From the sequence record OR844578: 51,807 nucleotides of DNA, one strand, 5' to 3'. A model generated the notes under the pieces. It made no database searches and had not been told where the DNA came from. It was given only the letters and a program-made list of their open reading frames with translations. This stretch comes from Escherichia phage ECO26.1 3-1. The position numbers and the translations under genes were made by a program. This document shows positions 46,725-47,042 of this stretch, piece after piece; the first letter of the stretch is position 1; the number at the start of each line of letters is the position of its first letter.

Positions 46725-47042
46725 ATGAAAACCATCGATTGTAAAGCAGAATTTAAGATTTTTTATCACGGTTCAATTAGTTCAGCTAACATCGAAAACA
46801 TGCTTTGTCCTCCTGAGGAAACAGGAGTTCTGTCTGAAACTGGACGTAAGAAAAACTTGGATCGTGTATTCTTTACTGAAGATATCGGTTTAGCAAAGAT
46901 TTATGCAGGACGAGCGGCACGCTCTTATGGAGGTGAACCACGTCTCTATCGAGTAATTTCTCCGGTAGATGTAGTTCAAATGAATGATACTAAAGGCGCT
47001 ACAGTTTATCATGCTGAATGGGCGTTCTGTGAGGAAATCTAA
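46725..47042 (+). CDS. hypothetical protein (105 aa) with H-G-S motif, co-transcribed with dmd
   Basis: TAAATG junction with dmd; FYHGS and later YHAE motifs. Confidence 0.5.
   Translation: MKTIDCKAEFKIFYHGSISSANIENMLCPPEETGVLSETGRKKNLDRVFFTEDIGLAKIYAGRAARSYGGEPRLYRVISPVDVVQMNDTKGATVYHAEWAFCEEI

Follow-up and report, generated by a model that had tools for sequence, protein, structure and literature searches.

A minimal ADP-ribosyltransferase-fold protein predicted at the head of the dmd-tifA operon of an RB69-like Escherichia phage

The DNA dealt with here is a stretch of 51,807 nucleotides from Escherichia phage ECO26.1 3-1 (sequence record OR844578), which in its full length is called the window. 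By sequence comparison the phage is an RB69-like T4-type phage, a Mosigvirus. Our subject is a small gene at positions 46725 to 47042 that directly precedes dmd and whose product is predicted to adopt an ADP-ribosyltransferase (ART) fold; gene and protein are here called ART for short. The local gene order is uvsX-40-41-ORF041c-ORF040c-dmd-61.4-imm.1-imm-sp-61.2, in which ORF040c is the ART gene. The 1.3 kb around it are 99.0% identical to Escherichia phage moskry and 94% identical to RB69. The elements of immediate concern are the following.

46725-47042, plus strand: ART gene, 105 amino acids (aa), predicted minimal Arr/Tpt1-like ADP-ribosyltransferase-fold protein; homologue of RB69ORF040c (NP_861730/AAP75942); PHROG 2110
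47043-47237, plus strand: dmd, 64 aa; Pfam PF17587, E 2.6e-23; PHROG 2102
47239-47451, plus strand: 61.4/tifA homologue, 70 aa; Pfam DUF7279, E 3.5e-20; annotated as 61.4 in RB69; third cistron
46670-46698, plus strand: T4-type early promoter with -35 GTTTAC and extended -10 TG-TTATTAT; from the promoter scan
46715-46718, plus strand: Shine-Dalgarno (SD) sequence GGAG of the ART gene, 6 nt before the ATG; read from the sequence
46676-46720, plus strand: hairpin with a 14-bp stem; anti-SD arm 46676-46689, SD-containing arm 46707-46720, -10 box in the loop

The ART open reading frame (ORF) runs on the plus strand from the ATG at 46725 to the TAA at 47040-47042 and encodes 105 aa. A preliminary description of this DNA had considered it to be directly coupled to dmd and to have a promoter cassette of its own, and both statements proved correct. 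The junction reads TAAATG, the ATG of dmd at 47043 following directly on the ART stop codon; the SD sequence of dmd, GAGGA, is located within the final ART codons, and the downstream product is Dmd by its Pfam match. The cassette comprises the early promoter and the SD GGAG. The window contains 14 matches to the pattern GTTTAC-N16-18-TANNAT, always on the plus strand, versus 0.7 expected by chance. Between 46698 and 47454 the window-wide pattern scan detected no such promoter, and ART, dmd and 61.4/tifA are therefore one early unit with ART as its first cistron. In T4, the corresponding early promoter lies directly upstream of dmd-tifA (PMC9391042). The ART gene is real and functional, since intact full-length homologues are found in 609 phage records and the ratio of non-synonymous to synonymous substitution rates (dN/dS) versus its relatives is 0.07-0.15, which means purifying selection.

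The fold was assigned by structure prediction and two independent fold searches. An AlphaFold2 model of the ART protein, based on 26 homologues, reached a predicted local distance difference test score (pLDDT) of 87.6 and a predicted template modelling score (pTM) of 0.78, and it presents the split beta-sheet of the ART fold. In Foldseek the rifampin transferase Arr ranked first (probability 1.00, TMq 0.58), followed by Tpt1/KptA. In BFVD two models of homologues superposed with TMq values of 0.89-0.92; the next match was a 94-aa phage protein named ‘Ms Rifampin ADP-ribosyl transferase’. Sequence comparison leads to Arr again. An exhaustive profile search collected 221 relatives. With a profile of 62 diverse ones only Arr structures were matched in the PDB (E 8.4e-5 and 0.0038), and hhalign against Arr-2 yielded a probability of 95% and an E value of 3.8e-8. 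Individually, 28 of these 62 relatives match Pfam PF12120 (Arr-ms); a few relatives reach 26.9-29.4 bits, above its gathering score of 25, and three multidomain relatives exceed this score. A profile built from T4-like members only had no match in the PDB; the link to Arr becomes visible only once distant relatives have joined the profile. Judged by the model and by profile homology, the ART protein is a minimal stand-alone ADP-ribosyltransferase-fold domain, and its phage and mobile-element family is sister to Arr. The preliminary description had thought of a minimal transferase in spite of the small size, and in this it is borne out by the model, the fold searches and the homology to Arr.

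Conservation was inspected in 103 sequences. Near-invariant are H15, G16, S/T17, P29, P30, T33, E38, R41, K43, N44, F49, T51, A57, Y60, A61, R63, G69, G70, G91 and A100. H15 and G16 of the HG[ST] element in strand 1 are strictly invariant, while position 17 is S or T. Diphtheria-toxin and PARP-type enzymes are characterised by a Y-x10-Y element. F49-x10-Y60 has exactly this spacing and both positions are near-invariant, the first being Phe instead of Tyr in 100 of the 103 sequences. Profile alignment puts H15 on H19 of Arr, F49 on Y49, E38 on E40, and G40-R41 on G42-R43. In Arr, H19 and Y49 bind NAD+ and D84 is catalytic (PMC6092378, PMC8492726); H19 of Arr-ms is critical for NAD+ binding (PMC6092378). 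H15, F49 and Y60 of the ART protein, as far as such alignments can tell, fit the NAD-site positions. The H-Y-E motif set that had been suspected from the letters thus stands in part. The His of FYHGS (residues 13-17) is the NAD-site His, aligned to H19 of Arr-ms, and the aromatic region was roughly right; the Tyr element, however, is F49-x10-Y60 and not the Tyr-rich segment, and the Glu of YHAE (residues 95-98), E98, is variable.

The likeness to Arr (PF12120; PDB 2HW2, 9IAF, 9IBA) is confined to the NAD-binding half, whereas the acceptor side differs. The ART protein is about 40 residues shorter, has Phe at the position of Arr Y49 and lacks D84 with its DPN[VL] motif as well as the S[NH][YF] loop motif, both motifs as defined for Arr (PMC6092378, PMC8492726). 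Its loop reads T-G-V where Arr has S-N-F. All alignments to Arr stop near residue 84-88, before the DPN motif and both rifampin-binding segments (about 87-95 and 126-133); the latter have no counterpart, the ART protein ending at residue 105 with a C-terminal third that cannot be aligned. The window protein reaches no Arr model threshold in Pfam or NCBIfam (NF033144). Its relatives attain 26 bits on this NCBIfam Arr equivalog, the cut-off being 130 bits, and match only model positions 3-70. Arr proper was rejected as an identity: the DPN motif and the rifampin sites are absent and the equivalog cut-off is far from being reached. The same findings bear on the idea that the ART protein is an Arr-like small-molecule ADP-ribosyltransferase that inactivates an antibiotic or an anti-phage metabolite. 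Among relatives of solved structure Arr alone is significant at the sequence level, and Iyer, Burroughs, Anantharaman and Aravind (2022, Viruses 14:1977) considered that the true Arr-family genes of some phages might modify diffusible compounds. Yet the rifampin-binding sites and the DPN motif are missing, the equivalog score of the relatives is low, and the hosts are Gram-negative enterics, not rifamycin producers. We regard this explanation as very unlikely.

Of Tpt1/KptA, the RNA 2'-phosphotransferase, the ART protein resembles the NAD+-binding lobe. Tpt1 has about 180 aa and possesses an extra N-terminal RNA-binding lobe with a catalytic Arg-His-Arg-Arg set. Nothing in the 105 aa corresponds to this lobe, and the Pfam search revealed no match to PF01885. 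Identity with Tpt1 was rejected because the ART protein is single-lobed. A further structural match is AcrF11 (PDB 6KYF), a phage anti-CRISPR mono-ADP-ribosyltransferase, which is likewise small and of ART fold. It differs in acting in another host system, sequence-level kinship was not detected, and its target Csy1 is irrelevant for the ART protein.

The family is widespread. In the phage database ART records belong to phages of Escherichia (215), Klebsiella (116), Acinetobacter (68), Aeromonas (62), Enterobacter (29) and Vibrio (14). The genome slot varies: in a Klebsiella Slopekvirus the gene is found beside srd and RNA ligase genes, in an Acinetobacter phage in the 41-61 region without dmd, and in Aeromonas phage 44RR2.8t between hoc and 30.6. 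The domain also occurs within large multidomain proteins of other phages and of conjugative elements, where it is fused to a lambda-type portal plus a 2H/Acb1-like phosphoesterase, to tape-measure-like, CHAP, ART-PolyVal, NUDIX or PcfJ domains, to GNAT plus Toprim, or to DUF7178. ‘Polyvalent proteins’ are effectors delivered into the host together with the DNA (PMC5512222, PMC9503650). The embedded domains match this pattern, which suggests an enzyme that goes to work on host targets as soon as infection begins. Relatives outside the window with an embedded Arr-like domain are P0166, P0147, P0174, P0162 and P0138. The embedded examples include a portal protein with an Arr-like and a 2H/Acb1-like domain (954 aa), a tape-measure-like protein (3924 aa), a CHAP-containing protein (2892 aa) and a protein composed of ART-PolyVal, Arr-like and NUDIX domains (1955 aa). 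The presence of two different ART domains within one protein suggests distinct targets.

The neighbourhood of dmd has given rise to a different interpretation, in which ART is a toxin and Dmd its cognate antitoxin, the two making up a phage-borne type II toxin-antitoxin module. It was published as a prediction by Iyer et al. (2022) for a ‘p0068-family ART + Dmd’ pair. We infer from the host range (T4-like phages of Escherichia, Shigella and Salmonella) and from the gene order that this is the ART-dmd pair of the window; gene pair, hosts and ART-fold prediction are the same. These authors placed the p0068 family in the H-Y-[EDQ] clade and read it as a toxin, whereas our comparison reveals an affinity to Arr/Tpt1 and no dependence on Dmd. 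Several facts speak in favour of their proposal. ART and dmd are adjacent, co-transcribed and translationally coupled (TAAATG here, an ATGA overlap in RB69), without an internal promoter. The pairing was reported also from Escherichia, Shigella and Salmonella phages, and in Klebsiella phages a Mod-like ART takes the equivalent position beside Dmd (Iyer et al. 2022). A translation limited by the hairpin described below would, moreover, suit a dose-sensitive protein.

The comparative data, however, speak against an obligate pair. Dmd stands beside ART in only about a dozen of 62 IMG/VR loci, all from the closest clade (at least 82% identity). At the other loci the downstream ORF encodes a Cys-rich acidic peptide of 41-46 aa, a membrane peptide of 55-60 aa, a lipoprotein-like product or an unrelated larger protein, or there is nothing. 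Detectable Dmd is present in 797 records (595 of them Escherichia), almost all of phages infecting Escherichia, Shigella, Yersinia and Salmonella, which is not the range of ART; absence of Dmd here means not detectable by tblastn at E 1e-3, and distant versions of this short, fast-evolving protein may be missed. In the T4-type phage RB51 gene 41 is followed directly by dmd, without ART, and in other genera ART occupies different slots. Nor do the two proteins co-vary: between window and RB69, ART is 98.1% but Dmd 62.5% identical, and a single ART allele is found beside two Dmd allele types. Finally, an independent function of Dmd, directed against RnlA and LsoA, is documented (PMC9391042). The window Dmd is 95% identical to that of moskry, 62.5% to that of RB69 and 71% to that of T4-type RB10. 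It seems that Dmd alleles are exchanged, or diversify rapidly, while the neighbouring gene stays constant, which is what one would expect of a toxin-binding inhibitor in an arms race. The coupling to dmd is real here but lineage-specific; from these comparisons ART looks like an independent cassette that happens to precede dmd in Mosigvirus-type phages rather than a Dmd-dependent toxin. We thus hold the published toxin-antitoxin reading to be unlikely, and the comparative data predict that it will fail when tested.

Two peculiarities of these loci may be added. In L012 and L017-L019, which are of Enterobacter/Yersinia type, ART is coupled to an acidic CxxC...CxxC peptide of 41-46 aa (MEEVECVVC...CTDCD...EEE) in the position of Dmd. 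In L011 (3532-3873) and L015 (3498-3830) the ORF after dmd encodes 110-113 aa and matches the Dmd profile with E values of 5e-22 and 2e-19, respectively; it may be a tandem paralogue of Dmd or a fusion containing a Dmd domain.

With a probability of roughly 0.55, the ART protein is an active NAD+-using transferase that works as an early effector of host take-over or counter-defence. We infer both the catalytic activity and the effector role. Driven by its own immediate-early promoter, the protein would appear within the first minutes of infection; its gene opens an operon whose two further products, Dmd and TifA, neutralise host RNase toxins. It would use NAD+ to ADP-ribosylate a host component, be it for take-over or for counter-defence, and would do so independently of Dmd. 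The immediate-early promoter would provide here the same timing as virion delivery provides for the embedded domain elsewhere. Counter-defence is the known business of the neighbours: Dmd is directed against RnlA and LsoA, TifA against ToxN (T4 and RB69), and AdfA/61.2 against DarT (PMC9391042). AcrF11 sets a precedent for a small phage ART-fold protein in an anti-CRISPR role and thus supports an effector.

A number of observations weigh against this reading. Phe replaces the first NAD-site Tyr in nearly all sequences (100 of 103). In the alignment of 103 sequences the third catalytic position holds no acidic residue common to the whole family, and the catalytic D84 of Arr in its DPN motif finds no aligned counterpart in the profile alignments. 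The isoelectric point is 5.7 (family median 6.9), with no nucleic-acid-binding signature, and the acceptor of ART cannot be deduced. In single-sequence searches the window protein alone matches nothing in Pfam, NCBIfam or the PDB. Guilt by association with dmd and tifA, finally, is limited to Mosigvirus-type lineages. Such single-sequence searches retrieved no PADLOC match either, only PHROG 2110 with ‘unknown function’.

As to the catalytic acid, E103 never varies within the T4-like clade, but outside it I, V or L stands in its place; T, E or S is found at position 93, and N, S or Q at position 87. E98 and E103 were ruled out as family-wide catalytic residues by conservation. Because the acid is missing, three further readings come into play: substrate-assisted mono-ADP-ribosylation, a Tpt1-like transfer to a phosphate nucleophile, or a protein that only binds or cleaves NAD+. 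In the last case ART would be a non-transferring binder of NAD+ or of ADP-ribose derivatives, i.e., a sponge, e.g., for Thoeris-type derivatives, or a simple NAD+ glycohydrolase. Conservation indeed covers the NAD-binding half but extends neither to the catalytic acidic position nor to the acceptor-binding third of Arr, and the protein is very small. Known phage sponges are expressed early, and the ART protein would resemble them in this respect. A stoichiometric sponge, however, makes little sense when the domain is embedded in polyvalent, portal and tail proteins that are delivered with the virion in low copy number. E38 and R41, which are common to the active Arr enzymes, are near-invariant, which argues against either variant. 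A sponge or NADase appears doubtful to us.

A more specific version of the effector would be a new class of counter-defence enzyme. The minimal Arr/Tpt1-like transferase would ADP-ribosylate abortive-infection RNase toxins of the RnlA, LsoA or ToxN type, or the RNA ends that they create, alongside Dmd and TifA in an early ‘anti-RNase’ operon. Other phages would bring the domain in ready-made as part of portal, tail and polyvalent proteins, and the 2H or NUDIX enzymes to which it is fused in some cases would process the ADP-ribose-phosphate products. Iyer et al. (2022) speculated on RNA substrates. We offer this extension as a quite tentative and rather improbable one.

The fold as such is not new. 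ART-fold assignment and Dmd association are already published as predictions (Iyer et al. 2022), and several GenBank records label homologues ‘putative ADP-ribosyl transferase’. A literature search turned up no experimental study of the ART family and nothing on RB69ORF040c. New are the specific affinity to Arr/Tpt1, the loss of the acceptor half of Arr, the virion-delivered relatives, and the comparative evidence against the view that ART and Dmd form an obligate toxin-antitoxin pair. Phage ADP-ribosylation has its classic model in the T4-like phages, with Alt, ModA and ModB. If the effector reading is true, ART would be a fourth transferase of these phages, much smaller than the three others and structurally unrelated to them. 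More than 600 sequenced phages carry it, and their hosts (E. coli, Klebsiella, Acinetobacter, Aeromonas, Vibrio) are of clinical relevance. Because of its place at the head of the dmd-tifA anti-toxin operon and the occurrence of the domain in injected virion proteins, it is a clearly defined candidate for a new activity in host take-over or anti-defence. The family is a widespread, uncharacterised predicted enzyme that is easy to test.

The wider surroundings are of a similar kind. The 61.4/TifA homologue (47239-47451) and the 61.2/AdfA homologue (48540-49199) flank imm.1, imm and sp, and the region 46.7-49.2 kb can be called an anti-toxin and superinfection-exclusion island, because dmd there joins the TifA and AdfA homologues, imm.1, imm and sp. 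On the other side of ART, one more gene has to be listed.

46295-46669: RB69ORF041c homologue, 124 aa, PHROG 10668; between gene 41 and the ART gene

It has an early promoter of its own (46236-46265) and found no match in Pfam, NCBIfam or PADLOC.

The ART cassette is built in an unusual way. Its anti-SD is placed just after the -35 box, and the hairpin is predicted to have a folding energy of -25 kcal/mol with a z value of -6.5, none of 200 shuffled sequences being as stable. The anti-SD/SD pairing is seen in relatives as well, with a matched TCCTC/GGAGGA change in L020. Transcripts from the 46670 promoter start without the 5' arm, and the hairpin is thus possible only in read-through RNA coming from upstream. 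In such RNA it would mask the ART ribosome-binding site, so that translation would be limited to transcripts of the proximal promoter. Five of the 14 early cassettes of the window share the design: directly behind the -35 box stands an anti-SD (TCTCC or TCCTC), which pairs with the SD of the downstream gene and leaves the -10 box in the loop.

1790-1850, 5403-5462, 23269-23330, 46236-46297 and 46670-46727: five anti-SD cassettes, free energies of -10 to -22 kcal/mol, z down to -5.7

The design would tie translation to initiation at the proximal promoter. T4-type phages have related units, the mobile promoter elements known as PeSL (promoter early stem-loop) cassettes (Arbiol 2010; Comeau 2014; PMC2839356, PMC4122927). 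Like the ART cassette they combine early promoter, SD and ATG and stand before accessory ORFs in hyperplastic regions; the window, too, holds a near-identical copy at 5403. The ART promoter fits the PeSL consensus TTTACW-N17-TAYWAT of T4/PST-type phages (PMC4122927). The stem-loop, however, lies upstream of the promoter in PeSL, whereas in the ART cassette the stem is built around the -10 box, with the SD as one of its paired segments. A PeSL-like cassette would account for the movement of the ART gene between genome positions. The cassettes at 5403-5460 and 46670-46725 have almost the same sequence (GTTTACTTCTCC..GTTGTGTTATTATAGACCT.TCAACTA..GGAGAA); as PeSL-like repeats they could act as recombination sites for cassette shuffling.
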